Assembly (NCBI GenBank): GCA_964648195.1
Contig: CAZYLL010000007.1
Coordinates: forward strand, 64,102 to 128,101
Origin: an uncultured Anaerolineaceae bacterium
Lineage (GTDB): Bacteria > Chloroflexota > Dehalococcoidia > Tepidiformales > Tepidiformaceae
DNA: 64,000 bases
Direction: 5' to 3'
Part shown: piece after piece, positions 2,132 to 57,473 of the stretch
Position numbering within the stretch: position 1 is the first letter of the stretch
Layout: the number at the start of each line of letters is the position of its first letter
The notes under the pieces: generated by a model
Database searches by the model: none
The model's input: only the letters and a program-made list of their open reading frames with translations
What the model was told of the DNA's origin: nothing
Program-made: the position numbers and the translations under genes

Positions 2132-2214
2132 GCAGCCCGAAACCCCGGACCACGCAGGGCGGCGGGCCGTGGCTCCTCGCCTGCCGGCCGCGAGACCGCG
2201 TGCCCGTGAGCTTC

Positions 2215-2220
2215 TAGACT
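2215..2220 (+). promoter_or_regulatory. -10-like TAGACT hexamer 6 nt upstream of the nadD ATG (predicts a leaderless mRNA)
   Basis: Read directly as cTAGACTtcccccATG. The same hexamer and spacing recur at 16906, 22567 (minus) and 45828. Confidence 0.4.
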
Positions 2221-2226
2221 TCCCCC

Positions 2227-2832
2227 ATGACGGGCGGCCGCATCGCGCTCCTTGGCGGGACGTTTGACCCGCCCCATATCGGGCACCTGGTGCTGGGTGA
2301 GTGTGTGCGCTCGCAGTTCGATTGCGAACGGGTGCTGTTCGTGCCCGCGGGCGACCCCTACCGGAAGACGGGGACGGACACGGAGGAGAACCGGCGGGCG
2401 GGTGTTGCATCGCCAAGGGCGGTGACCCCGGGAGTGGTGCGCCTCGAGATGGTGCGCCTGGCGATTGCGGGCAACCCGCACTTCGCGGCGGACGGACGGG
2501 AAGTGGACCGGGCGGGTCCCTCATATACGGTCGACACGCTGCGGGAGCTGCGGGCGGAAGGTTGGGAGGACCCCGTGCTGGTGCTGGGCAGCGATGCGCT
2601 GGCGGATCTGCCGAATTGGCGCGAGCCGGGCGAGATCCGGCGGCTGGCGCGGATTGCCGTCGCGGAGAAGGAGCCTGGAGCGGCGACCGGCCCTTTCGAG
2701 CGGGTGGACATGCCCCTGCTGCGCATTTCATCGACAGGAATCCGGGCGCGGGTCGCCGAGGGCAAGCCCATCCGCTACCTCGTGCCAGATGCGGTGCGGG
2801 AGTACATCGAGCGCGAGGGGCTGTATCGCTGA
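2227..2832 (+). CDS. nadD: nicotinate-nucleotide adenylyltransferase
   Basis: It has the N-terminal GGTFDPPHIGH nucleotidyltransferase motif and a C-terminal ISSTGIR motif. Length is 201 aa. Confidence 0.9.
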   Translation: MTGGRIALLGGTFDPPHIGHLVLGECVRSQFDCERVLFVPAGDPYRKTGTDTEENRRAGVASPRAVTPGVVRLEMVRLAIAGNPHFAADGREVDRAGPSYTVDTLRELRAEGWEDPVLVLGSDALADLPNWREPGEIRRLARIAVAEKEPGAATGPFERVDMPLLRISSTGIRARVAEGKPIRYLVPDAVREYIEREGLYR

Positions 2833-36551: not shown

Positions 36552-37463
36552 TCAGCGGGACGAGACGGCGATGGCAGCGGCGAGCAGGAGGCCGAGGACC
36601 AGGTTGTAGCGGGCGGTCGCCTTGAGCACGGGATTGAGGGCGCGGCCGGAGGCGCCGGAGAGGATGGCACGAAATGGCCGCGCGGCCCACGGCAGGCTGA
36701 TGAGCGAGGCTGCCCAGGCCCACTCGGCCGTGGAGACGAGCGAGATGCCGATTGGCACGACAAGGGCAACGACGAGCAGGATTGCGTACCAGGCACGGGT
36801 GCCGCGGTCGCCGAGGATGACGCCAAGCGTGGTTTTGCCGCTGTTCTTGTCGGTGGGGATATCGCGAAGGTTGTTGACGACGAGGATCTGGGTGACGGTG
36901 CAGCCAACGGGGATGGAGGCCGCGACAGCGAGCGCGGCGACATGGCCGGCCTGCACGTAGCAGGTGCCGACGACAGCGACGACGCCAAAGAACACGAAAG
37001 TGAACAGGTCGCCAAGGGCGTGATACCCGATCGGCCAGGGCCCGCCAGTATAGATGATGGCGGCGGCGATGCTGGCGAGGCCAACGGCGACAATCGGCCA
37101 CCCGCCGATGGAGACCAGGTAGACGCCGATGAGCATAGCCAGGGCGAAGACGAGCCACATGGCGGCGAGCATCTGGCCGGGGCTCAGGAAGCCCATCTGG
37201 GTGGCGCGGGGCGGGCCGAGGCGCTCGCTCGAATCGGCGCCCTTCTTGAAGTCGAACACATCGTTGGCGAAGTTGGCGCCAACCTGGAGGAGGAGCGCGC
37301 CGGCGAGGGCGGCCAGGGCAGGGAGCGGCTCGAAAGCACCAAGATGGATGGCCACGCCCGTGCCGGCCGCAACGGGGGAGATGGCAGCAGTCAGGGTCGG
37401 GAGGCGGGTCGCGAGCTTCCAGGCCTGGAAGGTGGATGGGCGCGCGGGGGTGGCGACGGTCAT
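36552..37463 (-). CDS. menA: 1,4-dihydroxy-2-naphthoate polyprenyltransferase
   Basis: It is a UbiA-family protein with Asp-rich motifs NFANDVFDFKKG and NNLRDIPTD and about 8-9 TM helices. Confidence 0.88.
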   Translation of the reverse strand: MTVATPARPSTFQAWKLATRLPTLTAAISPVAAGTGVAIHLGAFEPLPALAALAGALLLQVGANFANDVFDFKKGADSSERLGPPRATQMGFLSPGQMLAAMWLVFALAMLIGVYLVSIGGWPIVAVGLASIAAAIIYTGGPWPIGYHALGDLFTFVFFGVVAVVGTCYVQAGHVAALAVAASIPVGCTVTQILVVNNLRDIPTDKNSGKTTLGVILGDRGTRAWYAILLVVALVVPIGISLVSTAEWAWAASLISLPWAARPFRAILSGASGRALNPVLKATARYNLVLGLLLAAAIAVSSR

Positions 37464-39989: not shown

Positions 39990-41030
39990 CTAGGCCACGA
40001 GCTCGGCGAAGTCGTCGCGCAGGTTGAACCGATCGACGACGGCGGCGTGTTTTTCGCTGACACCTTCGAGCCGCTCGCGGATGCGTGTCTCGAGGTCGGC
40101 CCGCTTGAGCTGGAAGGCGAGCTTGGAGACGGTATCGCTGAGGCAATCACCGAGCGCCTTGCTGAACTCATCGGGCAGGGGGCCATCGAAGGCGACTTTG
40201 CCCGCGCGGTACTCGAATTCGGCGGCGAAGGGGTCGAGGAACGGGTAGGTGGGCGCGCGGGCGACGAGGACCTCCTTGAAGGCCATGAGGAAGCGGCCGG
40301 GCTTCGAGTATCCATCGGCAACGGACTCAACGGTGGCGACGACTTCGGACCAGAAGGCGAGCAGCGCCTCGCGGTGGGTCTCGGCGGCGGCGACGGGACC
40401 GGCAGGCCGGGCGGGCGCGCCATTGGCTGCTGGGGCCGGGGCGGCTTCGACGAACACGTTGAATGAGCCGCCGGAAGCGGTGACCAGCTGCACGATGGTG
40501 TTGAGGGCATCCTGGCCGGCGTTCAGGCCGGCGGGGGTGGAGAGGACGCTCTCGACCGGCTCGCCGTCGGCGAGGTAGATGACGCCGGTGCCCTGGCCAT
40601 CCCCGGCCTGGACTTCGACGTAGCCGGTCAGCCCATCGGAGCGGAGCTTGGCGATGAGGCGGTCGAGGCTGGTGAACGCGCTCGTGAGGTCCTTGTAGAG
40701 CGGGCGGGCATCCATGAGGCGATGGAGGAGGAGGACGACATCGGGGAAGGCGGAATAGACGTTGAGGGTGCCGTCCTTTTCGGTGGCGCGGGCAAGGATG
40801 CCGCGGACCGCGGGCGCGCCGGTGACGCGCCCGGCGCCGGACTCCTCGCAGGCGTTGACGATCTCGCCTTCAGAAAGGAGGAGCGTGCCGGTGTGGCCGG
40901 GGAAGGCGACCTCGACATAGCCGGTGAGCCGGCGGGACTGGAGGTCGGCGAGGAGCGCCTCGAAGGAGGTGAACGAAGTGTTCAGGTTGGCGTAGAGGGT
41001 ACGGTCTCGGGGGAACATCATCGTGGTCAA
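39990..41030 (-). CDS. protein with two tandem PATAN/DUF4388-like modules plus an unknown helical C-terminal domain
   Basis: An internal repeat is visible: FTSFEALLADLQSRRLTGYVEV..GTLLLSEGEIVNA versus FTSLDRLIAKLRSDGLTGYVEV..GVIYLADGEPVES. Confidence 0.6.
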   Translation of the reverse strand: MTTMMFPRDRTLYANLNTSFTSFEALLADLQSRRLTGYVEVAFPGHTGTLLLSEGEIVNACEESGAGRVTGAPAVRGILARATEKDGTLNVYSAFPDVVLLLHRLMDARPLYKDLTSAFTSLDRLIAKLRSDGLTGYVEVQAGDGQGTGVIYLADGEPVESVLSTPAGLNAGQDALNTIVQLVTASGGSFNVFVEAAPAPAANGAPARPAGPVAAAETHREALLAFWSEVVATVESVADGYSKPGRFLMAFKEVLVARAPTYPFLDPFAAEFEYRAGKVAFDGPLPDEFSKALGDCLSDTVSKLAFQLKRADLETRIRERLEGVSEKHAAVVDRFNLRDDFAELVA

Positions 41031-41481: not shown

Positions 41482-42708
41482 TCAGGCGGCGGCGCGGCGC
41501 TGGCGCAGGCGCTCGATGGCGGAACGGAGGCTGGCCTGCATGCGGCGGAGCGATTCGGCGAGCTGGCCGACTTCGTTGCGACCTTCGACATCGATTTCGA
41601 CGTTGAGTTCGCCGAGGCTCATGCGGTCGGCAACATCGGCCAGGTGCTTGAGCGGGCGGGTGATGGTGGCGGAGATAAAGACGGCCAGGGCGAGCGCAAG
41701 CAGGATCACGCCGAGGGCGGCGCCACCGTAGGTGTAGAACTCCTGCTGGGCCTGGCTGGTGCGTTCATCGAAGCGTGCGTCGAGGGTTTCCTGGGCAGCG
41801 GAGAGGAGCTGATTCGAGAGGTCGATGGCGCTTCCGCCGAGGAGGAAGTAGCCTTCGGCGCCGGTGGTGGAGAGGATGTTGGCGTTGATGATGTTGTTGG
41901 TGGTGGATTCGCCGAAGACGTTGCGCGACGTCTCGGCGCGGCGTGCGATCGGGCGGAGGGATTCCTCGAAATCGGCATTCGCGGCCATCGCGGTTTCGAG
42001 CGCGCGGGAGAGGGCATCGGCGTGGGCGGCAGCGAGGCTCATCTGCGAGACGAGGTAGGCCTTCTGCTCGGCGGTGGCGGACTGGCCCTGGCGGGCGATG
42101 AGGGCGGCGGTGCCGAAGCTGCGGGCCTGGGAAAGCGCTTCGGTGAGGCGGGGCAGGGAATCGGTGAGGGCGACGATGACGCTGCGGCTATCGAGGTCGG
42201 GGTCGAGCACGAGCCGGGACTCGACGGAGACCGTGGAGAGCAGCGGGAAGATGCCCTGTTCGATGAGGCGGGTGTGGGCGGCGTTGGAATCGATCGCGCT
42301 CGACCGGGAATCCTTGACTTTGGGCCACTCGGAATTCAGGAACTGGACGAGTTCGCCAGTCCCAAGGGCATCGCCGTGGCGGGAGTTCATGTCGTTGATG
42401 ACGGCGAGGGCGGCATCGGCGGCCGCCGCGGTGCGAACCATGTTATCGCGCGAGAACTCGTCGCCGCTGAGGACGCGCTGGACAAGGCCGCGGTGGATCT
42501 GCACTTCGCGGAGGAAGGGGACGATGGCGGCGACGTAGTCGAGGCCATCGGATTCGGCGCTCGCCTGTTCCTGCGTCTCGGTGCGCTGCTGGTACTGGAC
42601 GAAGAGGAGCGCGGCGATGGGCAGCGCGAGGACGACGACAATGAGGCCGAGTTTGTTGGAGATGCCGAGGTTGGCGATGGCGGAAAAACCGGGCAGGTGA
42701 CGACGCAT
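41482..42708 (-). CDS. membrane sensor with a NIT-like extracytoplasmic domain and HAMP, without an output domain
   Basis: TM1 is LGLIVVVLALPIAALLFV. NIT-like motifs are FLREVQIHRGLVQRVL and LSQARSFGTAALIARQ. TM2 is AALGVILLALALAVFISATI. The HAMP domain is TRPLKHLADVADRMSLGELNVEIDVEGRNEVGQLAESLRRM. The protein ends about 20 aa after HAMP. A GGAGGGA RBS precedes ATG 42708. Confidence 0.75.
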   Translation of the reverse strand: MRRHLPGFSAIANLGISNKLGLIVVVLALPIAALLFVQYQQRTETQEQASAESDGLDYVAAIVPFLREVQIHRGLVQRVLSGDEFSRDNMVRTAAAADAALAVINDMNSRHGDALGTGELVQFLNSEWPKVKDSRSSAIDSNAAHTRLIEQGIFPLLSTVSVESRLVLDPDLDSRSVIVALTDSLPRLTEALSQARSFGTAALIARQGQSATAEQKAYLVSQMSLAAAHADALSRALETAMAANADFEESLRPIARRAETSRNVFGESTTNNIINANILSTTGAEGYFLLGGSAIDLSNQLLSAAQETLDARFDERTSQAQQEFYTYGGAALGVILLALALAVFISATITRPLKHLADVADRMSLGELNVEIDVEGRNEVGQLAESLRRMQASLRSAIERLRQRRAAA

Positions 42709-43126
42709 GCTCCCTCCAAGGTGACCCGGGCGATGTCTGGCTGGGAATCCCGGGCAAGGCCGGGCCCGCGTGGGGCCTGGCACTCCCTGCTATTTCCAGA
42801 ATCGACGCCCGGCGTACACGGATAAGGTGGCAACTGCGTGGAGCAGGGGGCGCAGGACCGGGAACCACGCCTCCAGGCGCGGGGGTTATGCGGGCCGGGC
42901 GAGGAGGAGCGCCGCAGCTTCGGGCGGCCGTAGATTCACCGGGGGTGTGGGGGCGTTCCAGTGCGGGGGCGCGTGGCGCCGCGGCGGGTGGATGAGGGGG
43001 TTTCGCACGAAAATTCCTGCGTTGCCGGCGGCGCGGGCGTGGACCGCACGAAGGCCCCAAGAAAGGGGCCAGGGTGAGGTCGAACGCGCCGCAATGGGGG
43101 TAGACTCAGGGCCACGGAGGACAGCG

Positions 43127-45839: not shown

Positions 45840-46898
45840 ATGGCGGACCCATCGATCGTCATCGAGGCGGCTGGCCGCGAGGTGACCGTCACCAACCCGG
45901 GGAAGGTGTTCTTCCCGAAGGCTGGCTTTACGAAGCTGGACCTGGTGCGGTATTACCTCTCGGTTGCCGATGGTGCGCTCCGCGGCGTGATGAACCGGCC
46001 GATGGTGCTGAAGCGGTTTGTCAACGGCGTGGAAGAGAAGCCTTTCTTCCAGAAGCGGGCGCCCGCGAACCTGCCATGGGGCATCGAGACCGCACGCGTG
46101 ACGTTTCCGAGCGGAAGGAGGGCGGACCTGTGCGTGATCGATGATGCGGCGGACCTGGCATGGGTGATCAACCTTGGGTGCGTGGACTTGAACCCGTGGG
46201 CGGTGCGAGCCAGCGACGTAGAGCACCCCGACGAGCTGCGAATCGACCTGGATCCCACACCAGAGGCGACCTTCGCGATGGTGCGCGAGCTTGCGCTTGT
46301 GTGCCGCGACGTGCTGGCGGATTACGGGTACACGGGATACCCGAAGACGTCCGGGAGCCGGGGCATCCACATTAACGTGAGGATCGAGCCAAGGTGGACG
46401 TTCACGGAGGTGCGCCAGTGCGCGCTGGCGTTCGGGCGGGAGTGCGAGCGCCGCGCGCCGGAACTGGCGACGACGAAGTGGTGGAAAGAAGAGCGGCACG
46501 GGGTGTTCATCGACTACAACCAGAATGCGCGCGACCGGACGGTCGCCTCCGCCTATTCGGTACGTCCGACGCCGAACGCGCAGGTCTCGACGCCGCTGGA
46601 GTGGGACGAGGTGGGGACGGTGGAGCTGGCGGACTTCACGGTCGCGAACGTGCCGCGGCGGTTTGCGGAGCTGGGCGACCCGGGGGCGGGTATCGATGAC
46701 CGGGCATTCTCGCTTGAGCCGCTATTGGAGTTGAGCCGGAAGCAGTCGGAGGCGGGGCTGGGCGATGCGCCGTATCCGCCGCACTACCCGAAGGCACCGG
46801 GAGAGCCGCGACGGGTGCAGCCGAGCAAGGCAAAGAAGGATGCAGAAGCCGCCAGGACGCGAAGAGCGCCCGGGGGAGCGCCAAGGGCTTCTGAATAA
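45840..46898 (+). CDS. NHEJ polymerase/primase (stand-alone LigD Pol domain)
   Basis: It has VTNPGKVFFPKAGFTKLDLVRYY, KPFFQKRAP and KTSGSRGIHINV, followed by a basic C-terminal tail. Confidence 0.88.
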   Translation: MADPSIVIEAAGREVTVTNPGKVFFPKAGFTKLDLVRYYLSVADGALRGVMNRPMVLKRFVNGVEEKPFFQKRAPANLPWGIETARVTFPSGRRADLCVIDDAADLAWVINLGCVDLNPWAVRASDVEHPDELRIDLDPTPEATFAMVRELALVCRDVLADYGYTGYPKTSGSRGIHINVRIEPRWTFTEVRQCALAFGRECERRAPELATTKWWKEERHGVFIDYNQNARDRTVASAYSVRPTPNAQVSTPLEWDEVGTVELADFTVANVPRRFAELGDPGAGIDDRAFSLEPLLELSRKQSEAGLGDAPYPPHYPKAPGEPRRVQPSKAKKDAEAARTRRAPGGAPRASE

Positions 46899-46916
46899 TG
46901 AGGCGTTCGGAGGCTG

Positions 46917-47195
46917 TCAGCCGCCGACGACGACGTTCCATTCGCGGATACGGTGGGCGGTGACGAGGCCGTTGGCCACGTAGGGATCGCGGGAGACGAA
47001 CTCCTCGGCAGCCTCACGCGAGGTGAAGACGAAGACGGCACCGTCGACCGGGTCGGCATAGGCGCCGGCGAGCTTGAGCTTTCCATCGGCGAGGAAGGCG
47101 CGAGCGAGATCGAGGTGGGCCGGGCGAAAGGGGTCGCGCCTGGTGAGCACGTCGGGGACGTAGTCGTAGAACAGGAGGTAGTGCATGGGGCTCAT
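46917..47195 (-). CDS. YciI family protein
   Basis: This 92-aa protein has MHYLLFYDYVPDVLTRRDPFRPAHLD ... FVSRDPYVANGLV. Confidence 0.8.
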   Translation of the reverse strand: MSPMHYLLFYDYVPDVLTRRDPFRPAHLDLARAFLADGKLKLAGAYADPVDGAVFVFTSREAAEEFVSRDPYVANGLVTAHRIREWNVVVGG

Positions 47196-47387
47196 CGTAC
47201 GGGATGAAAGCCCGGTGCCACGTATTCACAGGTCTCCGTGCTTCCACAGGCCCCAGAGTCTCCGTGCCACGGCCGCCGGGTCCTCATCGAGCCCGGCGTT
47301 GTAGCGGGCCAAGTAGCGCAGGAGGTTGCGCAGGTCCCGCTCGACATGGACAAGAGCGAGGGCGGCTGGAGCCGATGGCACGCTCAG

Positions 47388-48401
47388 TTACGCATCGAAG
47401 ACACGCTGCAATTCGTAGGGGACGGCAGCCTCGAACTGGTCGAACGTGCAGGTCCGCGGGGGCTTATCGGTGCGCCAGCGTCTGAAGGTGGCTGCGTGGC
47501 GGAAGCGGTTGTCCTGAAGGTAGTCAAAGGAGACTTCGCAGACGAGTCCGGGGCGGAGGCGCACCCAGGAGAGGTCCTTGCCGCCTGTCCAGCGGCTGGG
47601 GGCGCCGGGGGTTCTTCCCTGGCCGAACGATTCGGCTTCGTCTTCGGAGCGGTAGGGCGCCAGGAAGGCCACCAGGTCGCGTTTTTCGCTGGCGCTGAAG
47701 CTGGAGGTGTGACCGACGTGGTGGAAGAGGCCATCGTCGCTGTAGAGGCCCAGCAGGAGGGAGCCGACCGATTTGCCCTCTTCGCCACGGTGCCAGCGAA
47801 AGCCGCCGACGACGCAATCAGCGGTGCGGAGGTGCTTGATCTTGGCCATGACGCGTTTGCCCGGCTGGTAGGCATCGGAAAGCTTCTTTGCGATGACGCC
47901 ATCGAAGCCGGCGCCTTCGAAGCGTTCGAACCAGTCGAGCGCAACCGCGCGGTCAGCGGTGGCGGGGGTGAGGTAGGCAGGGGGGGAGACGTGTTCGAAG
48001 TAACGCTCGAGGCGGGCGCGGCGCTGGGCAAGGGGGGCCGTGAAAAGGTCGTCGGCGCCATCGCGGAGCATGTCGAAGGCCACAAAGGCGGCAGGCGTTT
48101 CGCGGGCGAGCATGCGGACGCGGGATTCGGCGGGGTGGATGCGCATCTGGAGGGCATCGAAGTCGAGGCCTTTCGGTCCCATGATGACGATTTCGCCGTC
48201 GAGGATGGCGGGGTCAGGGAGGGCGGCGGCGAGGCCGCCGACGAGTTCGGGGAAGTAGCGGGCGAGGGGCTTGAGGTCACGCGACTGGAGGTAAGGCGGC
48301 GAAGCGCCATCGTAGAAGACGATGCAACGGAAGCCATCCCACTTCGGTTCGTAGAGCCAGCCATCGCCCGCGGGGATTCCGGGCGTGAGTTTGGCGAGCA
48401 T
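47388..48401 (-). CDS. ATP-dependent DNA ligase (stand-alone LigD ligase domain / LigC-like)
   Basis: It has MLAKLTP..GWLYEPKWDGFR (adenylation Lys motif), GFDGVIAKK and an OB-fold C-terminus. The start was re-picked at ATG 48401. Confidence 0.88.
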   Translation of the reverse strand: MLAKLTPGIPAGDGWLYEPKWDGFRCIVFYDGASPPYLQSRDLKPLARYFPELVGGLAAALPDPAILDGEIVIMGPKGLDFDALQMRIHPAESRVRMLARETPAAFVAFDMLRDGADDLFTAPLAQRRARLERYFEHVSPPAYLTPATADRAVALDWFERFEGAGFDGVIAKKLSDAYQPGKRVMAKIKHLRTADCVVGGFRWHRGEEGKSVGSLLLGLYSDDGLFHHVGHTSSFSASEKRDLVAFLAPYRSEDEAESFGQGRTPGAPSRWTGGKDLSWVRLRPGLVCEVSFDYLQDNRFRHAATFRRWRTDKPPRTCTFDQFEAAVPYELQRVFDA

Positions 48402-48498
48402 GGGAGCGATGGGGGATGGGGGTTGCGAGCCGGGCACGCAGGGATTGTGGCGTAGCCAGAAGCGAGTTGCGAGTTTGCCTCTCTCGCAAGCGCGAAGG

Positions 48499-48969
48499 CT
48501 ACTTGTCGGAGGAGACGGCAGGGAGGCGGAGGCAGTGCTCGCTCTTGCGGCAGAGTGGGACGGGGGGCTGGAGGTTGGGGTCGGGGATGCACTGGGGGTC
48601 CCAGGTCTGGACGAAAACGGGAGTGATGACGGTGCCCTTGAGGGCGGGATCGAAGGCGTCGACGAAGGTGGTGGAACCGCCGTATTCGATCCGGAGGGCG
48701 TTGGATACCTCTCCGCTCTCAAGGACGCCCGTATCGAAGAAAGGTGGGTCTTCGGGGAAAAGGCTCGGGATGATGATGCGGCGGGGCTGGTTGCCGGCGT
48801 TCTTGAAGCGGACGTACTCGCGGTTCATGCGGCAGATCGGGGGGTTGAAGCCGGCCTCGCTGACCTCGATGGTCTGGACTTCGTAGGCGCGCGGGGCCAA
48901 CGGCGGCGCGAGCGCCTGGGCCAGCAGGGCCAATGCGCAAAGGGGGAGGAAGATGCGGCGAGCAGACAC
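48499..48969 (-). CDS. secreted hypothetical protein
   Basis: It has a GTG start and a signal peptide MSARRIFLPLCALALLAQALA, and the mature part of ~130 aa contains 4 Cys. I recognise no family. Confidence 0.55.
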   Translation of the reverse strand: MSARRIFLPLCALALLAQALAPPLAPRAYEVQTIEVSEAGFNPPICRMNREYVRFKNAGNQPRRIIIPSLFPEDPPFFDTGVLESGEVSNALRIEYGGSTTFVDAFDPALKGTVITPVFVQTWDPQCIPDPNLQPPVPLCRKSEHCLRLPAVSSDK

Positions 48970-50821: not shown

Positions 50822-51838
50822 TCATCGCATCGGCGTGGCGGTCGCCATTCCGGTGCCCATGTTCATGCCCGAATCGGAGCCTGGTTTGGCAGCAGCCATG
50901 ATGGTCACCTCTCCGGCCTTTTCGAACGTCAGGGTGATCGGCACCACCTGGCCTTCGGTCACCGGGGCCTTCAGGTCCATCAGCATGATGTGGAAGCCAC
51001 CGGGCTTGAGTTCGAGCATGCCGTTGGCGGGGATGGGGAAGCCGCCTGCCTTCTCCTGCATCTTCGAGGTCGAGCCTTCGGTGATCACTTCGTGGAGCTG
51101 GACGGTAGCCGTCAGGGGGGTGCTGGCCTTGATGAGCCTGTCGGCAACGCCGGTGTTTTTCACGACCAGGTAGGCGGCGGTGACGTTGTTCGTGGTGGTG
51201 CGGACCCATTGGCCTGTGATGGTCAACGAACCCAACGTCACGTCTTTGGGCATGCCAGACATCGCGGTCGTGGCGGTGGCGGCAGGGGTGGTCGAGGAGC
51301 TCATGCTGCCGTGATCCATTCCGCTCATGTCGGGCGCGGCCTTCACCGGGGCATCGATAGTGATTTCGCCGGCCTTTTCGAACGTGAGGGTCAGCGAGAC
51401 GGTCTCGCCCACGGCGATGGGCGCCTTGAGGCCCATGAGCATGATATGGAAGCCACCGGGCTTGAGTTCGAGCGTGCCGTTTGCCGGGACGGGGAAGCCG
51501 CCAGGTTTCTCTTGCATCTTCGAGCTGGAGCCTTCGGTGATGACTTCGTGCAGCTGGACGGTGCTGGTGAGCGGCGTGGCCGCCTTGATGAGGGTATCGG
51601 CGGCGCCGGAGTTGTGGACGGTGAGGTAGGCGGCGGAAACGTCGTTGGTGGTGGGGCGGACCCACTGGCCGGAGATGGTCAGCTTGCCAAGCCTGGCGCC
51701 ATCGGTCATGGCCGGGGTGGAATCGCCACGGGCGTCGTCGTCATCGTCGTCACCGCAGGCGACGGCGACGAGGGGGAGGGAGAGCGCAAGGATGAGGAGG
51801 AACGCGGCAAGCGGGCCGCGCCGGAGGAGGTGTGTCAC
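50822..51838 (-). CDS. copper chaperone PCu(A)C, tandem two-domain fusion (lipoprotein)
   Basis: It carries two copies of the PCuAC pattern ISGQWVR..AAYL.V.N.G...D.LI.A.TP....VQLHEV......KMQE......PANG.LELKPGGFHIMLM.LK. The likely start is GTG at 51838, overlapping the SCO stop. The lipobox is LVAVAC. Confidence 0.85.
   Translation of the reverse strand: MTHLLRRGPLAAFLLILALSLPLVAVACGDDDDDDARGDSTPAMTDGARLGKLTISGQWVRPTTNDVSAAYLTVHNSGAADTLIKAATPLTSTVQLHEVITEGSSSKMQEKPGGFPVPANGTLELKPGGFHIMLMGLKAPIAVGETVSLTLTFEKAGEITIDAPVKAAPDMSGMDHGSMSSSTTPAATATTAMSGMPKDVTLGSLTITGQWVRTTTNNVTAAYLVVKNTGVADRLIKASTPLTATVQLHEVITEGSTSKMQEKAGGFPIPANGMLELKPGGFHIMLMDLKAPVTEGQVVPITLTFEKAGEVTIMAAAKPGSDSGMNMGTGMATATPMR
50913..51226 (-). 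repeat. intragenic direct repeat, copy 1 (second PCuAC domain of the protein)
   Basis: About 314 nt are clearly alignable with 51369-51682 at a constant 456-nt offset. Long identical runs include ccggccttttcgaacgt and atggaagccaccgggcttgagttcgagc. Confidence 0.8.
51369..51682 (-). repeat. intragenic direct repeat, copy 2 (first PCuAC domain of the protein)
   Basis: See copy 1 at 50913-51226. Confidence 0.8.
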
Positions 51839-52488
51839 TTTGGTTGATATCCCTTTTTCACGAGGAGTGGAAGGTCGTTGAGCCATTCGGCCTGGCCCAT
51901 CCCGGAGGGGTAGACCAAGTAGGCGATGCGGTCGGGGGTGAAGGCCATGACGTAGGCGGCGTGGTTGACCGCGTAGTTGCCACCGCCAAGGTCGGTACGG
52001 GTGGCGGGCTCGAGGCCGAGGGCACGCTGGAAGTCATCCATGAGCTCCCGGGGGCCGGTGAGCCCGACAAAGTTCTCGTCGAAGGTATCGAGGTACTTCT
52101 TCAGCACCTCCGGGGTGTCGCGTTCGGGGTCGGCGGTCGCAAAGACGACCTTGACCTTGCCCGATACATCCGCGGGGAGCTTCTTGAGTGCCTCGCTGAT
52201 TTCGTAGAGGTGGGTTGGGCAGATGTCGGGGCAATGGGTGTACCCGACATAGAGAAGGGTGACGAAGCCCTCGGTCTCCTCCTGGAGGTCGTACTTCTCG
52301 CCGTTCTCATCGAGGAGGACCGCATCGGGCATCTCAATTGGAGGAGCGACGGTGGCGCCCATGTAGGAGGCGCCGCCGCTGGCCGGGCTGCCGCTGTCGC
52401 TGTCGCCGTTACCGCCACAGGCGGTGAGAACGAAGGCTGCAGCCAGGACGCCGAAGGCGAGGGCGGCAGAACGGGCGATTGTGTGCAT
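51835..52488 (-). CDS. SCO1/SenC family copper chaperone (lipoprotein)
   Basis: It has the lipobox LTAC and the thioredoxin-fold Cu site YVGYTHCPDICP. The start was re-picked at MHTIARS (ATG 52488). Confidence 0.88.
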   Translation of the reverse strand: MHTIARSAALAFGVLAAAFVLTACGGNGDSDSGSPASGGASYMGATVAPPIEMPDAVLLDENGEKYDLQEETEGFVTLLYVGYTHCPDICPTHLYEISEALKKLPADVSGKVKVVFATADPERDTPEVLKKYLDTFDENFVGLTGPRELMDDFQRALGLEPATRTDLGGGNYAVNHAAYVMAFTPDRIAYLVYPSGMGQAEWLNDLPLLVKKGYQPK

Positions 52489-52609
52489 GAGTAACTCCAG
52501 AGGGTGTCGCTGCCCGGGCGCGGGAGCCCGGGCAGCGGGCGGGAACCACCGATCGTGATGATCTTCACAGATCATACACCCGCAGGTGAGGGGCGGATGG
52601 GCCTTGCGT

Positions 52610-52641
52610 GGCCAGCGCGGCCGGCGCCGGCCGCGCTGGCC
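52610..52641. repeat. perfect 32-bp GC-rich palindrome
   Basis: GGCCAGCGCGGCCGGCGCCGGCCGCGCTGGCC equals its own reverse complement. It lies between the lipoprotein gene stop (52649) and the SCO start (52488). A second hairpin gctgcccggg/cccgggcagc lies at 52509-52536. Confidence 0.8.
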
Positions 52642-52648
52642 ATGCACC

Positions 52649-53131
52649 TCAATGGGTATGACCATCGCCGCCATGGGCCAGCCCAGCAGCCTCGTAAAGG
52701 TAGTCCCACACCGCTCCAGAAAAGTCGTGCTGGGCGACGTGGACCTTCGTCGAGAGCTCGCCGACCCGGGCCATGTCGGGGGATTCGGCATCGAGGACTT
52801 CGGCGAATTCGCCGAAGAGCGCCGCGAGCGAATCGGCCCGGGCCTCGAGGTCATCGTTGGGCCAGTGTGTGAGCTTGACGAGCGCCTGCATGCGGACCGT
52901 GGTGGTCCTCGCAGTCGCCGGGATCTTCTTTTCCTGCTGAATGGCATCATCGATTTCGTGGAAGCCGGCGGCATCGAGGATGCTGATTGCGGTGAGGACG
53001 GTTGCGTCGCCGGAGGGGGAATCACCGGCGCCGTCGTCACCGCAGGCAGCCGCGGCAAGCAGGGCGATCGCGGAGAGAGCGGCGAGCGCCATGAGCGCCA
53101 GCGGGCGCGAGAGGATCCTGGTCATATCCAT
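52649..53131 (-). CDS. lipoprotein with His-rich C-terminus (hypothetical, possible metal binding)
   Basis: It has a signal peptide plus lipobox LLAAAACG, a helical body and a C-terminal HGGDGHTH. The start is 53131 or 53125. Confidence 0.5.
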   Translation of the reverse strand: MDMTRILSRPLALMALAALSAIALLAAAACGDDGAGDSPSGDATVLTAISILDAAGFHEIDDAIQQEKKIPATARTTTVRMQALVKLTHWPNDDLEARADSLAALFGEFAEVLDAESPDMARVGELSTKVHVAQHDFSGAVWDYLYEAAGLAHGGDGHTH

Positions 53132-53193
53132 GTTCCTTGTGAGCTGGGAGGCGAGACGCCTCGTGCGCGAGCGAACAACGCTCGCGGGGCACA

Positions 53194-53634
53194 TCAGCAA
53201 GCGCGGGAAAGGGCTCGCGGCGGCTCCAGCTCTGGGGAAGGGGTAAAGCCCTCACCCGGGTTCCACCAGCGAAGGGCGAGAAGGAGAAAGATCCCGGAAG
53301 CACCGAGAAGGGTGACGAACTCATTCAGGATGGCGAATGTGACACCGGCGGAGGCGGGAGCATCGCTGCAGGAGCCAGCGTCGGCGTGGCAGTGGCGGGA
53401 GTGGTCGTGGCCGTCGTCCTCGCCCGAGGCGGGAGCGGCGCCGGGGAGCGCGAGGTAGTACGCGGTGCCGGGGATCGGCAGTTCGGCGGGCCAGTGGCCG
53501 AAGAAGGTCAGGGTCGGCAGCAGCGCGAAGGCCAGGATGAAGGAGGCGCGGCGCCGGCCCGCCACAGAGGAAAGGCGAACTCCCACGCGCGAAGGATAAC
53601 ACCGGGTGCGCGATAGCGGTGAGACAAAGGTCAC
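53194..53634 (-). CDS. membrane protein with a His/Cys-rich loop (hypothetical)
   Basis: Two hydrophobic helices flank GEDDGHDHSRHCHADAGSCSD. The start is uncertain. Confidence 0.4.
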   Translation of the reverse strand: MTFVSPLSRTRCYPSRVGVRLSSVAGRRRASFILAFALLPTLTFFGHWPAELPIPGTAYYLALPGAAPASGEDDGHDHSRHCHADAGSCSDAPASAGVTFAILNEFVTLLGASGIFLLLALRWWNPGEGFTPSPELEPPRALSRAC

Positions 53635-53699
53635 AAGATCCGGAGAGGCCGGGTTCCGCTACACTCGGCAGCCACCACCGGTTGGACGAGGGCAGAAGC

Positions 53700-54548
53700 A
53701 TGCGAGACTTGCGAGGCAGGACAGCAATCGTAACTGGCGCATCGCGCGGACTGGGACAGTACATCGCGCGGGCGCTGGCAGCGGAGGGGGTGAACCTTTC
53801 GCTCGCGGCGCGTTCGGCGAGCGAGCTGGAGCGGGTCGCGGACGAGATGCGTGCCCTGGGCGTGCGCGCTATTGCGGTGCCCGGGGATGTGACCTCGGCA
53901 GCGGACCGCGCGCGGCTCGTCGAGGCGACGCTGGCAGAGTTCGGGCGGGTCGACATCCTGGTGAACAACGCCGGGATCGAGGTGACGGCGCACTTCGAGC
54001 GGCAGAGCGAGGAAGAGCTGGCGCGGACGATCGAGGTGAACCTGACGTCGGCGATCCTCCTGACGCGGCAGGTGGTCCCCGTGATGCTGGAACGAAATGC
54101 CGGGCATGTGGTGAACATGGCATCGCTGGCGGGGAAGGTGCCGGTGCCGTACAGCGTGCCCTACGCGGCTTCGAAGGCCGGGCTCATCGGGTTCACCGAG
54201 TCGTTCCGGAACGAGTTCAGGAAGCGCGGGGTGAGCGCAAGCGTGGTCTGCCCGGGGCTGGTCTCGGAAGCGGGCATGTATGTGCAGATGCAGCAGGACG
54301 CGGGCGTGAAGGAGAACTTCCTGGCCGGGACGGTGACCCCGGGGAAGGTTGCCTCGGACGTGGTGAAGGCGATCAAGCGGGACAGGCCGGAGTTGCTGGT
54401 GTACCGGGGGCCGGGCCGGCTGGTGAGCGCCTTTGCGGAGGCCGCGCCGGGTGTGTTCGAGCGGGTGTTCCCGGTATTCGGGACATTCACGCTGTTCCGG
54501 AAGATCGCCGACGCGAGGGAGAAGCGGGGGGAGAAGGCCGGCGGATGA
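53700..54548 (+). CDS. SDR family oxidoreductase
   Basis: It has TGASRGLG (TGxxxGxG), NNAG and YAASK (YxxxK). Confidence 0.88.
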   Translation: MRDLRGRTAIVTGASRGLGQYIARALAAEGVNLSLAARSASELERVADEMRALGVRAIAVPGDVTSAADRARLVEATLAEFGRVDILVNNAGIEVTAHFERQSEEELARTIEVNLTSAILLTRQVVPVMLERNAGHVVNMASLAGKVPVPYSVPYAASKAGLIGFTESFRNEFRKRGVSASVVCPGLVSEAGMYVQMQQDAGVKENFLAGTVTPGKVASDVVKAIKRDRPELLVYRGPGRLVSAFAEAAPGVFERVFPVFGTFTLFRKIADAREKRGEKAGG

Positions 54549-54576: not shown

Positions 54577-55353
54577 TCAGGCGTCGCCGACAAGGGTACT
54601 GGCGAAGATCTGCCACGCGAGGGCCGACTTCGCGGTCAGGCTGAGGAGGACGTAGACGGCTTCTCCGAAGAGGTAGTCGCGCCAGGGGCCGGTGCGGCGG
54701 TACTGCAGGACCATGTTGACCGCGAAACAGTTGAAGAAGACGAAGAGCGACACGAAGATGCCGACGACGAAGCCGGGCGGCGAGGCTTCGAAACCGGGGC
54801 TGGTGAAGTAGATGGCGATGGCGATCCACGGCACGGCCCCGGCGAAACAGCCGAAGATGAACGCAGTCCAGTTGGGGTTGCCGGGCTCCTCGTAGTGCTC
54901 CATCAGGAGTCCGAACAGGATCATTGCGGCGTTGACGCCGAAGATGGCGACCAGCGCAGCGACATCGCTGATGCCCGTGAACATCGCGATGAGGACGACC
55001 ATGACCGAGGAGCTGACGGAATACTCGATCCAGCGGGCGTAGTTGCGATTGCGGCCGAGGTTGCGGGCGTACCAGCCGTAGACGCCCGGGGCGGAGATGA
55101 TCCAGTGAGCCGCCGCCGAGAGGAAGACGAAGAGGGCAACCCCCCAGGCGATGCGGACATCGAAGAGGTCGCGCAGTTCGGGGGGAGCCGAACCCGGGGC
55201 ATCGCTCATAAACGTCGCCGTAACGGGCAAGGAGAAGTCGTTGGCGAGGGCGAGGATAGCCACGCCCTGGGCGGCATGGAAGGCGCCCATCACCAGGTTG
55301 TAGAGACGGAGGCGGCGCAGCTGGCGTTCGCGTGGGGCGCCGGGGGTGCTCAT
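54577..55353 (-). CDS. heliorhodopsin
   Basis: It is a 7-TM protein carrying, in order, the blocks I recall from heliorhodopsins: ILALANDFSLPVT, RWIEYSVSSSVMVVLIA, IFGVNAAMILFG, FGCFAGAVPWI, and LSLTAKSALAWQIF (Schiff-base Lys). Confidence 0.9.
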   Translation of the reverse strand: MSTPGAPRERQLRRLRLYNLVMGAFHAAQGVAILALANDFSLPVTATFMSDAPGSAPPELRDLFDVRIAWGVALFVFLSAAAHWIISAPGVYGWYARNLGRNRNYARWIEYSVSSSVMVVLIAMFTGISDVAALVAIFGVNAAMILFGLLMEHYEEPGNPNWTAFIFGCFAGAVPWIAIAIYFTSPGFEASPPGFVVGIFVSLFVFFNCFAVNMVLQYRRTGPWRDYLFGEAVYVLLSLTAKSALAWQIFASTLVGDA

Positions 55354-55459
55354 CGTTTGTCCTTCGGGTGGGTTTGGGGGATGTCCCCGGTAGATGAACG
55401 AACGGCAAGGCTGCGGCGATCATCGGGGCGCGTTAACCGCCGGGCCCGGCGAAGCGTTG

Positions 55460-55489
55460 TTGATGCAAGCAGCCAATGGAGACTATAGT
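55460..55489 (+). promoter_or_regulatory. sigma70-like promoter, TTGATG-18 nt-TATAGT
   Basis: Read directly as gTTGATGcaagcagccaatggagacTATAGTctgcta. No annotated plus-strand gene lies immediately downstream. Confidence 0.55.
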
Positions 55490-55519
55490 CTGCTACATGT
55501 TCGAAGGGGGGCGCCGCCG

Positions 55520-55600
55520 ATGACGACAAAGACGCGAGCAGCTGCATTCCGGCTGCGCCTCAGTGCGCCCAGCGCCGGAAGAGTGCCCATCGAGCAATAA
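55520..55600 (+). CDS. possible 26-aa leader peptide / small ORF (MTTKTRAAAFRLRLSAPSAGRVPIEQ)
   Basis: The ATG is preceded by GAAGGGGGG 9 nt upstream. The ORF lies inside the promoter-to-terminator leader. Coding status is unproven. Confidence 0.25.
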   Translation: MTTKTRAAAFRLRLSAPSAGRVPIEQ

Positions 55601-55622
55601 ACGGGACGAGTCCGACCGTTCG

Positions 55623-55664
55623 AAGCCGTGGGCGTCACCAGACCAAACGCCCACGGCTTTTTTT
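55623..55664 (+). terminator. strong rho-independent terminator
   Basis: A 12-bp stem agccgtgggcgt/acgcccacggct with an 11-nt loop is followed by TTTTTTT. It lies 82 nt upstream of the ABC ATPase start. Confidence 0.8.
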
Positions 55665-55746
55665 GATCTCCGCTCTTGCCGGGGTGAGGAATGCCGGGGC
55701 AGCCCGGCCACTCGCCGGGAACGCCCGCCCCACGAGGAGGAGATGA

Positions 55747-56640
55747 ATGACGGTGGCAACCACAGAGCCAGAACAGTTTCGAGGGTTGCGGATCGAGGTC
55801 GACCCGCACGCCCGCGCCCTCGAAGTCGACGACGTGACCAAGGTGTTCCGGCAGGGGCCGGGACTCATCGGGCGGATGAAGGGGAAACGCGAAGAGCGCA
55901 AGCGGGTGGTCGCAGTTGACCACGTGAGCTTCGTGGTGGAGCGTGGGGAGATTTTCGGCGTGCTGGGACCGAACGGCACGGGAAAGAGCACGCTCATCCG
56001 GCTGATGTCGACGCTCCTGATGCCCGACACGGGGCGGGTGCGGGTGTTCGGGCTGGACGTGGAGCGGGACGAGGCGCAGGTGAAGCGGCTCATCAACCGC
56101 GTCTCGGTGGAGGCGTCGTTCTTCAAGAAGCTCTCGCCCATGGAGAACCTGATGTACGGGGCGCGGCTTTACGGCGTCGACCCGGCCTATGCGCGGCGCA
56201 AGGTCGTGGAGATCCTGACGCGGCTCGGGCTGGAGAACCGGTCGATCAGCTCTTCGATGGAAGACATGTCGCGCGGGATGCAGCAGAAGGTGGCGATTGC
56301 GCGGGCGTTCCTGACGGCCCCGGTGCTGCTGCTGCTGGACGAGCCGACGACCGGGCTCGACCCGCATTCGAAGCGGGAGGTGCAGGCGGCGGTGCGGGAG
56401 CTGCGCGACACGCACGAAGCGACGGTGGTGCTGACCACCCACGACATGCAGGAAGCGGACGAACTGTGCGACCGGATCGCGATCGTGGACAAGGGCCGGA
56501 TCGTGGCGCTGGATACGCCACAGGGGTTGAAAGACATGGTCCGGCAGCCGGGCGAAGCCCCGCCATCGCTGGAGGACGTCTTCCTGCGGCTAACGGGGAA
56601 GAAGCTGGAAGAAGCTGACCAGGAGGCAGAACAGTCATGA
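55747..56640 (+). CDS. ABC transporter ATP-binding protein (DrrA/ABC-2 type)
   Basis: It has Walker A GPNGTGKST, the signature MSRGMQQKV, Walker B LLLLDEPTTGLD and the H-loop TTHDM. Confidence 0.92.
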   Translation: MTVATTEPEQFRGLRIEVDPHARALEVDDVTKVFRQGPGLIGRMKGKREERKRVVAVDHVSFVVERGEIFGVLGPNGTGKSTLIRLMSTLLMPDTGRVRVFGLDVERDEAQVKRLINRVSVEASFFKKLSPMENLMYGARLYGVDPAYARRKVVEILTRLGLENRSISSSMEDMSRGMQQKVAIARAFLTAPVLLLLDEPTTGLDPHSKREVQAAVRELRDTHEATVVLTTHDMQEADELCDRIAIVDKGRIVALDTPQGLKDMVRQPGEAPPSLEDVFLRLTGKKLEEADQEAEQS

Positions 56641-57473
56641 CACTGGCGTATCACGAATTGCGGGCGAGCTACGCGTTCGTCGAGCGGAACATCAACCTGG
56701 TGAAGCGGTACTGGGGCTGGGAGCTGGTGTGGATGCTGTACACCATCGCGAACTCACTCGCGGTGGTGCTGATTGCGCGCGGGGCGAACACGGCCGTGGG
56801 CGGGCAGCCGCTGAGCACAGCGCAGGTGGACACGCTGATCCTGTTCCTGGCGATCGGGGCGCTGGTGTGGCACTACCTGGCGGTGGTGTTCCAAACGGTG
56901 AGCGAGATGATCAGCTGGGAGCGCTGGGAAGGGACGATCGAGTACACGTTCATGGCGCCGGTGCGGCGGGGCACACATATGGTGGGGACGGCAGTGTTCT
57001 CGCTGGTGTACGGGTTCGCGCACACGGCGGTCGTGCTCATCATCGTCGTGCTGGCGTTCGACCTGAACATGTCGCACGCGAACTACGTCTCGGCGAGCGC
57101 GGTCCTCATCGCCGGGAGCCTGTCGCTGGTTGGGATCGGGATCATGGGGGCGGTGCTGCCGCTGCTGTACCCGGAGCGTGGGGCGGAGATGACCCACGTG
57201 ATCCAGGCGGCGCTGGTGCTGATCTCGGGCGTGTACATCACGGCGAGCGAGATGCCGGAGCCGCTGGCAACGATCTCGATCTTCAGCCCTGCGACCTACG
57301 TCATCGAAGGGATCAGGTCGGCGCTGATCGACGGTGAGGGGTTTGCGGAACTCTGGCCGACGATGCTGGGGCTGGTCGCAAGCGGCATGCTGATGATCCC
57401 GCTGGGGGTGTACGTGTTTTCGCTGGGCGAGCGGTACGCGAAGCGGACGGGGCGGCTGAAGCGGAGCGGGTAG
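56637..57473 (+). CDS. ABC-2 type transporter permease
   Basis: It is a 6-TM protein whose start forms an ATGA overlap with the ATPase gene. Confidence 0.85.
   Translation: MTLAYHELRASYAFVERNINLVKRYWGWELVWMLYTIANSLAVVLIARGANTAVGGQPLSTAQVDTLILFLAIGALVWHYLAVVFQTVSEMISWERWEGTIEYTFMAPVRRGTHMVGTAVFSLVYGFAHTAVVLIIVVLAFDLNMSHANYVSASAVLIAGSLSLVGIGIMGAVLPLLYPERGAEMTHVIQAALVLISGVYITASEMPEPLATISIFSPATYVIEGIRSALIDGEGFAELWPTMLGLVASGMLMIPLGVYVFSLGERYAKRTGRLKRSG

Follow-up and report, generated by a model that had tools for sequence, protein, structure and literature searches.

A typical heliorhodopsin gene with lineage-specific neighbors on a Chloroflexota contig

Heliorhodopsins (HeRs) are retinal-binding light-sensor membrane proteins that are frequent in Chloroflexota and Actinomycetota. 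Members of the family are described as non-pumping proteins with a photocycle longer than 1 s and a cytoplasmic N-terminus; proton transport is known for some of them, mainly viral, and the bacterial HeRs that have been tested do not transport ions (PMC9385722; PMC11109279). Solved structures are available for 48C12, from a freshwater actinobacterial fosmid (PDB 6SU3, 6SU4, 6UH3 and 9LJJ), and for TaHeR, from the Thermoplasmatales archaeon SG8-52-1 (PDB 6IS6, 7U55 and 7CLJ), in which a glutamate (E107 and E108, respectively) acts as the Schiff-base counterion (PMC9385722). A functional partner has been described for OcHeR of Ornithinimicrobium cerasi, which up-regulates the multidrug ABC exporter OmrDE in the light (PMC11109279). 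HeRs are restricted to monoderms, and a full retinal pathway was found in just 1 of 381 HeR-only genomes (Bulzu 2021); 61.4% of helR genes stand alone (Cho 2024), and both an SDR or ABC transporter near helR and the lack of a retinal pathway are patterns already described as common (Bulzu 2021; Cho 2024). Here we compare with these systems a HeR gene from a 64,000-nucleotide stretch of contig CAZYLL010000007.1, referred to below as the window.

The heliorhodopsin gene and its product

The HeR ORF lies on the minus strand at 54577–55353, from an ATG at 55353 to a stop codon at 54577, and encodes 258 amino acids with seven transmembrane helices. A Shine-Dalgarno-like GAAGGA, read from the sequence, is positioned 6 nt 5′ of the ATG (55360–55365, minus strand), and the GC3 of 0.88 is typical for real genes of the window (window GC 67.5%). 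An earlier note on this DNA had named the gene a heliorhodopsin, and two curated HMMs bear this out with scores well over their cut-offs: PF18761 (E 9.2e-101, 336.7 bits, cut-off 26.7) aligns residues 15–254 with profile positions 1–242 of 242, and the NCBIfam equivalog NF038020 'heliorhodopsin HeR' scores 332.8 bits (cut-off 100) and spans positions 1–244 of 244. The type-1 rhodopsin model PF01036 reached 19.5 bits on the same protein, under its cut-off of 24.6 bits. In phmmer searches of the PDB the protein matches 48C12 at E ~1e-74 and TaHeR at 4.5e-68, the TaHeR match covering residues 9–254, and among 8000 candidates scored, 7261 are relatives with E≤1e-20. The gene is a genuine, typical heliorhodopsin. 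It is a routine addition to a family of which thousands of members have been sequenced, and standard annotation pipelines would be expected to name it automatically.

The AF2 model of the protein (pLDDT 79, pTM 0.77) has seven helices and a short helix at residues 91–100 in the B-C loop, typical of the heliorhodopsin family. Foldseek comparison of the model with the PDB returned HeR structures at all of ranks 1–10 (TM-score 0.72–0.78), whereas type-1 rhodopsin structures align with a TM-score of ~0.57 and 13% identity. Grouping with a non-rhodopsin seven-helix family, which would have overturned the assignment, is not what was found; the fold groups with the solved heliorhodopsins and with no other 7-TM family. 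A long extracellular A-B loop in the form of a β-hairpin is a feature of heliorhodopsins; the A-B loop here comprises 28 residues (40–67) and is modeled without secondary structure, with pLDDT <50 at 41–51 and 59–64. By the positive-inside rule, the loops carry 10 Lys/Arg residues on the N-terminal side versus 2 on the other side, and this distribution of charge predicts an inverted topology with the N-terminus in the cytoplasm and the C-terminus outside.

All four motif blocks that had been listed as family hallmarks (ANDFSLPVT, RWIEYSVSSSVM, IFGVNAAMILFG and LSLTAKSALAWQIF) occur in the translation in the order given. The lysine of LTAKS, proposed to bind retinal, is K242 (codon AAG, 54628–54630, minus strand); it sits in the predicted helix 227–254 (helix G) of the AF2 model, and K242 in LSLTAKS aligns with the Schiff-base lysine K241 in LSLVAKS of 48C12, making it the predicted retinal Schiff-base lysine. 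The glutamate of RWIEY, proposed as the counterion, is E110 (codon GAG, 55024–55026, minus strand) in helix C; its counterparts are E107 in 48C12 and E108 in TaHeR, and it is the predicted single Schiff-base counterion. In full, the His23/His80 pair, E107, S237 and K241 of 48C12 correspond to H26/H83, E110, S238 and K242. W108, Y111, S114/S115, N141, M144, P175, W176 and W247 are also retained relative to 48C12, and the Arg/Glu cap is present as R107/E231. Invariant positions in a 40-sequence alignment are H26, H83, R107, W108, E110, Y111, S114, N141, M144, P175, W176, E231, S238, K242 and W247. Among the retinal-pocket residues checked against 48C12 there is one exception, Q213, which is replaced by M214, and this methionine is nearly invariant within the clade in the same alignment.

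The closest relatives belong to a Thermoflexus sp. (HeR 91% and purF 98% identical) and to Chloroflexota MAGs; the uncharacterized HeRs from these genomes (loci L001, L010 and L085; proteins P0001–P0003) are 91–94% identical to the window protein, and the region is syntenic throughout, with purF 98% and the ABC ATPase 93–96% identical. The exact protein is also encoded on five public metagenome contigs, with the same neighbors where the contigs are long enough. Thermoflexus, a genus of thermophiles, belongs to Chloroflexota, which are monoderm bacteria. From these closest relatives we infer a monoderm prokaryotic host, Thermoflexus-like and within Chloroflexota, and a rough temperature estimate from the amino acid composition of the window gives ~50 °C. 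Among the papers searched, none names heliorhodopsin together with Thermoflexus.

Flanking genes and their conservation

The HeR gene forms a single-gene unit, convergent with one neighbor and divergent from the other, as the earlier note had described it. On the downstream side is a classical SDR gene (53619–54548, plus strand; PF00106 E 1.5e-58), indeed convergent; 28 bp separate its stop codon from that of HeR. Its start is ambiguous, with products of 252–282 aa predicted by other gene callers, it scores under every NCBIfam equivalog cut-off, and its best PDB matches are generic FabG/glucose-dehydrogenase-type SDRs. On the upstream side, 393 bp away and divergent, are the plus-strand genes for a DrrA-like ABC transporter ATPase of 297 aa (55747–56640; PF00005 E 3.3e-30), which scores 249 bits against TIGR01188 drrA, under the cut-off of 312, and for an ABC-2 permease of 278 aa (56637–57473; PF01061 ABC2_membrane E 4.9e-12). 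A 4-nt overlap between the end of the ATPase gene and the start of the permease gene places the two in one operon.

The description of this exporter as leader-controlled agrees with a conserved, terminator-bearing leader between HeR and the ATPase gene (55460–55664, plus strand), supported by promoter scan, alignment and folding. It is composed of a promoter-like TTGATG-18-TATAGT (55460–55489) found by the promoter scan, a 26-codon ORF (55520–55600) and, in both MFE and consensus folds, a hairpin GCCGTGGGCG/CGCCCACGGC followed by T7 (55625–55664), all on the plus strand, and the three blocks are invariant in an alignment of four relatives. The four sequences are too similar to one another for covariation, and no compensatory pairs were found among them; the folding z-score for an antiterminator alternative was non-significant. 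The region between HeR and the ABC genes was also examined for riboswitches and other known RNAs; this possibility was rejected, as Rfam gave no match there at gathering thresholds and a permissive search gave one chance-level match (E 0.72).

Conservation of the neighborhood was assessed by tblastn of 16 window neighbors against loci with HeR relatives, 80 from genomes and 80 from metagenomes, and by all-against-all clustering of ORFs ≤5 kb from HeR. Orthologues of the SDR, the ABC-2 genes, purF, SCO1 and others were found only in five near-identical relatives, and at most 7 of 80 HeR loci share any one flanking family. A conserved HeR partner gene was rejected on this ground, the neighbors being shared only by near-identical relatives. 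The arrangement varies even at this range: L002, L010 and L085 have ~1 kb between HeR and the SDR, which in L002 and L010 carries a lipoprotein gene of 311–315 aa (GerMN/Gmad2-type in L010), and in L010, where HeR is 94% identical, an additional Zn-dependent dehydrogenase (Zn-ADH) gene lies directly upstream of HeR and separates it from the ABC leader. The SDR and the ABC-2 exporter are neighbors specific to this lineage; they do not count as evidence of partnership, and a partner cannot be reliably deduced from them. Proximity of HeR to LigD (NHEJ) in L025 and L109 is a curiosity; a linkage hinted at by L025 was dropped after an extra metagenome scan gave the same lineage only (L109).

Proposed function and alternative readings

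We consider the protein to be a canonical bacterial HeR that most likely functions as a slow-photocycle light sensor, a function extrapolated from relatives of 45–50% identity. By analogy with 48C12, TaHeR, BcHeR and OcHeR, it would bind all-trans retinal, and on the pattern of the characterized members light would convert the retinal to the 13-cis form, the Schiff-base proton would shift within the protein only, no ion would be pumped, and a long-lived O-like state (~1 s or more) would serve as the signaling state. This state may alter the arginine-rich cytoplasmic face and thereby, through direct contact, modulate at least one partner protein. HeR is a transcription unit of its own.

In a different reading, light harvesting or transport would be the main role instead of sensing, with an exogenous xanthophyll bound at a lateral fenestration as a second antenna and/or protons moved. 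A 2025 preprint argues for HeRs as carotenoid-antenna light harvesters and names six residues that form the carotenoid-binding fenestration. All six are identical here (48C12 F162, C166, G169, F206, N207 and A210 correspond to F165, C169, G172, F207, N208 and A211), and four of them (G172, F207, N208 and A211) do not vary across the clade; however, the same preprint reports these residues in 91% of HeRs, so they do not single out this one, and its antenna case is made by structure comparison and docking rather than by showing that a HeR binds a carotenoid or receives energy from one. Proton transport has been described for viral HeRs, whereas none of the bacterial HeRs tested transports ions, and antenna binding would also be compatible with a sensory output. 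We regard a primarily light-harvesting or transporting role as unlikely, and the light sensor remains the preferred reading.

If the protein is a sensor, the adjacent exporter is a candidate target, and the experimental precedent of a HeR acting on an ABC exporter (PMC11109279) raises the idea that HeR, through protein-protein contact in the membrane, activates the DrrAB-like ABC-2 exporter in the light, as OcHeR does OmrDE. The divergent HeR/ABC-2 layout is retained in L001, L002, L085 and the identical metagenome contigs, and an independent Actinomycetota lineage (L025 and L109; HeR 65–66% identical) has a divergent DrrA-like ATPase and ABC-2 permease 357–652 bp upstream. However, the L025 permease is just 24% identical to the window permease over 67 residues, so the two transporters are not orthologous, and ABC ATPase-like matches, at varying distances from HeR, are present at ~19 of ~155 other HeR loci, which is about the frequency of the genomic background. 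HeR and the ABC operon are not co-transcribed, the latter having its own promoter-like site and terminator-bearing leader, which in L010 is split from HeR by the Zn-dependent dehydrogenase gene. The transporter class differs as well: here the NBD and the ABC-2 permease are separate proteins, whereas the precedent has fused, TmrAB-like half-transporters that share an operon with helR. Direct activation of the exporter thus appears distinctly improbable, and more doubtful still is the fuller scheme in which efflux would be under dual control, from the peptide/terminator leader and from light acting via contact with HeR in the membrane.

The other neighbor bears on the supply of the chromophore. 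The earlier note saw no retinal-synthesis genes in the window, and Pfam scans of the ORFs likewise gave none: crtE/B/I/Y, blh and RPE65-type genes were not found among 58 GC3-filtered ORFs and the SCO1-like ORF at 51835–52479, and ORFs in the larger inter-gene gaps, listed and inspected outside the Pfam scan, showed none either. A UbiA prenyltransferase gene (36552–37463) was rejected as a retinal-pathway gene, being 17 kb away and not crt-type. Because the window lacks retinal-synthesis genes, as is usual for HeR-only organisms, the cell probably scavenges the chromophore or makes it with genes that lie elsewhere in its genome.

Scavenging of retinol would give a role to the convergent SDR, as a retinol dehydrogenase supplying HeR with retinal in a chromophore-plus-opsin pair. 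Such a role has been proposed for adh_short genes near HeRs (Bulzu 2021), and SDR oxidoreductases are among ten recurrent same-operon helR neighbors (Cho 2024). At the locus itself, the close spacing of the SDR and HeR stop codons would suit such a pair, as would the second, Zn-ADH-type oxidoreductase immediately upstream of HeR in L010 and the co-directional SDRs downstream of HeR in L026, L056, L101 and L157. Against this, the window SDR is convergent, so that SDR and HeR are not an operon and are not co-transcribed, the co-directional SDRs of the other loci are 26–29% identical to it, and the ~1 kb gap of L002, L010 and L085, with its lipoprotein gene in L002 and L010, separates the pair in close relatives. 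SDRs are among the commonest bacterial gene families. The window SDR is generic and FabG/glucose-dehydrogenase-like, no retinol-dehydrogenase entry is among the 60 PDB matches listed, and with PDB and NCBIfam comparisons generic only, we rejected the assignment as a retinol dehydrogenase; of the readings considered, the chromophore-plus-opsin pair is the least probable.

Comparison with described heliorhodopsin systems

As the gene stands alone and its neighbors are not conserved, the locus is no more informative about the physiological role of HeRs than hundreds of other loci, and makes that role no more testable. The finding has little importance past correct annotation, adding one more canonical HeR from a Chloroflexota lineage related to Thermoflexus; should its host indeed be a thermophile, the protein might serve biophysics or optogenetics as a stable scaffold.

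The OcHeR-OmrDE system and the window locus are alike in that a HeR gene adjoins ABC exporter genes, and the arginine-rich cytoplasmic loops of the window HeR are a further likeness to OcHeR that could provide a contact surface. OmrDE consists of TmrAB-like fused TMD-NBD half-transporters whose genes precede helR in a shared operon (PMC11109279), whereas in the window the ABC operon is divergent from HeR at a distance of 393 bp with a terminator in its own leader, and the transporter is made of a 297-aa ATPase and a 278-aa permease. Were the exporter nonetheless under HeR control, HeR-ABC coupling would extend from TmrAB-type half-transporters to the structurally unrelated ABC-2 class.

The protein itself compares with the two structurally characterized HeRs as follows. 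TaHeR is 45–46% identical in structural alignment (TM-score 0.72–0.76) and has the same counterion/lysine architecture, but is archaeal and farther from the window HeR than is 48C12. The alignment with 48C12 covers 249 residues at 49% identity with one gap only, of 2 residues, and the two proteins are of the same length class; they differ in the E-F loop, which is two residues shorter in the window HeR, in the replacement of Q213 by M214, and in their hosts, a high-GC member of Chloroflexota and a freshwater actinobacterium. 48C12 is also the best structural match to the model (TM-score 0.77), and common to both proteins are the Schiff-base lysine, the glutamate counterion, the histidine pair, the Ser237 equivalent, the Arg/Glu cap and the fenestration residues.

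The heliorhodopsin and its chromophore site

The heliorhodopsin (HeR) gene runs on the minus strand from an ATG at 55353 to a stop codon at 54577 and encodes 258 amino acids. Its codon-position GC content (0.60/0.47/0.88) follows the pattern of real genes in this window of 67.5% GC, and a GAAGGA ribosome-binding motif is read in the sequence 6 nt 5' of the start codon. The four motif blocks quoted in the earlier note are all present in the translation, in the order claimed. Several independent results place the protein in the family: Pfam PF18761 (Heliorhodopsin) matches at E 9.2e-101 over profile positions 1–242 of 242; the type-1 rhodopsin model scores 19.5 bits, under its 24.6-bit cut-off; the NCBIfam equivalog NF038020 'heliorhodopsin HeR' scores 332.8 bits (cut-off 100); and the best PDB sequence matches, both aligned over nearly the full length of HeR, are the crystallised heliorhodopsin 48C12 (E about 1e-74) and Thermoplasmatales HeR (E 4.5e-68). 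The finding is real and was correctly read; the protein is an ordinary, canonical member that automatic annotation would name, with thousands of sequenced relatives (7261 of 8000 scored candidates at E<=1e-20).

Residues were mapped through the alignment to 48C12 (49% identity, 123/249, one 2-residue gap). The Schiff-base lysine is K242 (K241 in 48C12), the counterion E110 (E107), the His pair H26 and H83 (H23 and H80), and S238 (S237) adjoins the Schiff base. W108, Y111, S114/S115, N141, M144, P175, W176 and W247 are common to both proteins, while M214, in place of Q213, is the sole mismatch among the positions checked. In an alignment with 39 relatives (67–91% identity), H26, H83, W108, E110, Y111, S114, N141, M144, P175, W176, S238, K242 and W247 are invariant and M214 is nearly so. 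Also invariant is the R107/E231 pair, the counterpart of the Arg/Glu pair that caps the Schiff-base cavity in heliorhodopsins (PMC9385722).

The AlphaFold2 model built from this alignment (pLDDT 79, pTM 0.77) has seven transmembrane helices and the short B–C loop helix (residues 91–100) that is a hallmark of heliorhodopsins; the long A–B loop is of low confidence. A Foldseek search of the PDB with the model returned heliorhodopsin structures at all of ranks 1–10 (TM-score 0.72–0.78), followed by type-1 rhodopsins (TM-score about 0.57, 13% identity). The loops between the modelled helices carry 10 Lys/Arg on the N-terminal side and 2 on the opposite side, so the positive-inside rule predicts a cytoplasmic N-terminus, the inverted topology that defines heliorhodopsins. 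These results favour the claim in both tests proposed against it: the lysine of LTAKS aligns with the Schiff-base lysine, and the protein does not fall in a non-rhodopsin 7-TM family.

The computations establish family membership, fold, chromophore site and counterion, and predict the topology. By inference from characterised relatives, all-trans retinal would be held as a protonated Schiff base on K242 and stabilised by E110, light would isomerise it to 13-cis, proton transfer would be internal and without release, and a long-lived O-like signalling state would modulate a partner through the arginine-rich cytoplasmic face. It seems improbable that HeR serves as a carotenoid antenna or in transport: the six fenestration residues that a 2025 preprint proposes are all present, but the same preprint finds them in 91% of HeRs and argues for carotenoid binding from docking and structural comparison.

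Genomic setting and host

HeR faces a classical SDR gene in convergent orientation (53619–54548, plus strand; 28 bp between stop codons), diverges from genes for an ABC ATPase (55747–56640, plus strand; DrrA-like, with a score under the cut-off of the DrrA model) and an ABC-2 permease (56637–57473, plus strand), and is therefore a single-gene transcription unit, with surroundings as the earlier note described them. Farther out lie gpmA-like, PCuAC and SCO1 genes, purF, and genes for an EcKL/APH kinase, a serine acetyltransferase and a ROK protein, with LigD polymerase and ligase genes (45840–48722) 5.8 kb downstream of HeR. Pfam scans covering 58 GC3-filtered ORFs and one more gave no match to a polyprenyl synthase, phytoene synthase/desaturase, lycopene cyclase, Blh or RPE65-type enzyme, and no ORF inspected by eye in the larger inter-gene gaps resembled a retinal-pathway gene, in line with the reported absence of retinal biosynthesis genes from the window. 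Rfam detected no tRNA, rRNA or riboswitch family.

Directly past the SDR gene is a copper-handling cluster (50822–53200, minus strand), syntenic in L010 and L085, two loci with HeR relatives. It encodes a 354-aa copper chaperone with two PCuAC domains in tandem, a SCO1/SenC protein and, lacking annotation, a protein of 183 aa whose N-terminus resembles that of lipoproteins. A 433-aa protein (41482–42783, minus strand) has a HAMP domain at its C-terminus and shows no output domain that could be recognised; it adjoins a DUF4388-containing protein (39990–41030, minus strand) and lies about 12 kb away from HeR. Genes of two-component systems are reportedly enriched near HeRs, but this one is distant.

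The nearest relatives come from a Thermoflexus sp. MAG (Thermoflexus being a genus of Chloroflexota) and Chloroflexota MAGs; no paper mentioning heliorhodopsin and Thermoflexus together was found in the literature searched. A neighbour-joining tree (without bootstrap) groups HeR with those of loci L001 and L010, nested in a cluster of interleaved Chloroflexota and Actinomycetota HeRs at 65–76% identity. This interleaving suggests either helR exchange between these monoderm phyla or strong constraint; the identity exceeds our own, unmeasured expectation for vertical inheritance, which suggests horizontal exchange. From the share of IVYWREL among some 16,000 amino acids that the window encodes, the growth optimum would, by crude inference, be near 50 C.

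The leader of the ABC-2 operon

HeR and the ABC ATPase gene are separated by a 393-bp spacer, in which a leader with conserved elements (55460–55746, plus strand) comprises a promoter-like TTGATG-18-TATAGT (55460–55489), a 26-codon ORF, MTTKTRAAAFRLRLSAPSAGRVPIEQ (55520–55600), a 10-bp GC-rich hairpin followed by seven T (55625–55664, about 80 nt 5' of the ABC start codon) and a GGAGGAG ribosome-binding site 5' of that codon. The promoter-like hexamers, the hairpin arms and a GTGCCCATCG block are invariant in three alignable relatives, while the intervening sequence varies; in the short ORF the frame, the length (25–26 codons) and the ...RVPI end are preserved.

The terminator-like hairpin dominates single-sequence and consensus folds. 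With its 3' arm omitted, the 5' arm instead base-pairs with GTGCCCATCG, the invariant block that closes the short ORF, a pairing that could act as an antiterminator, and the whole looks like a translation-coupled attenuator. This alternative fold gains no stability over shuffled sequence, and four similar sequences yield no covariation; hence, of the claim that the exporter is leader-controlled, a leader with a conserved terminator is supported, while how it would sense is no more than a model. No Rfam family matches the leader. It is part of the ABC operon rather than of HeR; in L010 a whole gene lies between the two.

A CGTTAACC motif (55432–55439), containing the palindrome GTTAAC, lies about 20 nt 5' of the -35-like hexamer. 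It is invariant in 4/4 aligned relatives, stays on the ABC side in L010, where HeR no longer adjoins, and may be an operator site.

Conservation of the neighbourhood and published systems

The identical HeR protein occurs on five public metagenome contigs, with the same neighbours on those of sufficient length. We compared the best 80 of 573 loci from a genome scan (one genome per species) and a further 80 from a metagenome scan. Orthologues of the window SDR, ABC ATPase, ABC-2 permease, purF, SCO1 and others occur only in L001, L002, L010 and L085, whose HeRs are 78–94% identical to that of the window and where the whole region is syntenic (purF, for example, at 98% identity). Even among these closest relatives the HeR flanks differ. 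A secreted lipoprotein gene separates HeR from the SDR gene in L002 (10898–11833, minus strand) and in L010 (3636–4583, minus strand; GerMN/Gmad2-type), and the HeR–SDR gap of L085 is of the same size. In L010 a Zn-dependent alcohol dehydrogenase/quinone oxidoreductase-like gene (1727–2788, plus strand) ends 25 bp before the co-directional HeR ORF. The window has neither gene.

When all ORFs lying up to 5 kb from HeR were clustered, no flanking family recurred in more than 7 of the 80 genome loci. ABC-ATPase-like and SDR-like matches at other loci are 25–42% identical and scattered in distance and orientation, at a frequency close to what a rough estimate, as opposed to a measured background, gives for such abundant families. 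HeR is a solitary gene with neighbours that are not conserved.

In L025 (9992–12958) and L109, loci of an Actinomycetota lineage with HeRs 65–66% identical to that of the window, an ATP-dependent DNA ligase gene (LigD ligase domain, 47–49% identical to window 47388–48722) starts 11 bp past the stop codon of HeR, in the same orientation. A LigD polymerase gene lies there in convergent orientation, and upstream a DrrA-like ABC/ABC-2 pair is transcribed divergently. This may be a HeR–NHEJ operon in that lineage, or the linkage may be chance; about 155 other loci gave no further independent case.

Light control of the adjoining exporter by HeR is likewise an improbable reading. In the case characterised by Cho et al. 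2024 (PMC11109279) the partner, OmrDE, consists of two fused half-transporters of TmrAB type, encoded within the helR operon and upstream of helR; the window ABC-2 exporter differs in both arrangement and transporter class. It is also improbable that the SDR supplies retinal to HeR: Bulzu et al. 2021 saw potential retinol dehydrogenases in adh_short genes located near HeRs, but this one is a generic FabG or glucose-dehydrogenase-like enzyme. A HeR gene that stands alone among non-conserved neighbours agrees with both surveys: Cho et al. 2024 find that 61.4% of helR genes stand alone and name ten neighbours that recur in the same operon, including ABC transporters and SDRs, and Bulzu et al. 2021 found a complete retinal pathway in only 1 of 381 HeR-only genomes.
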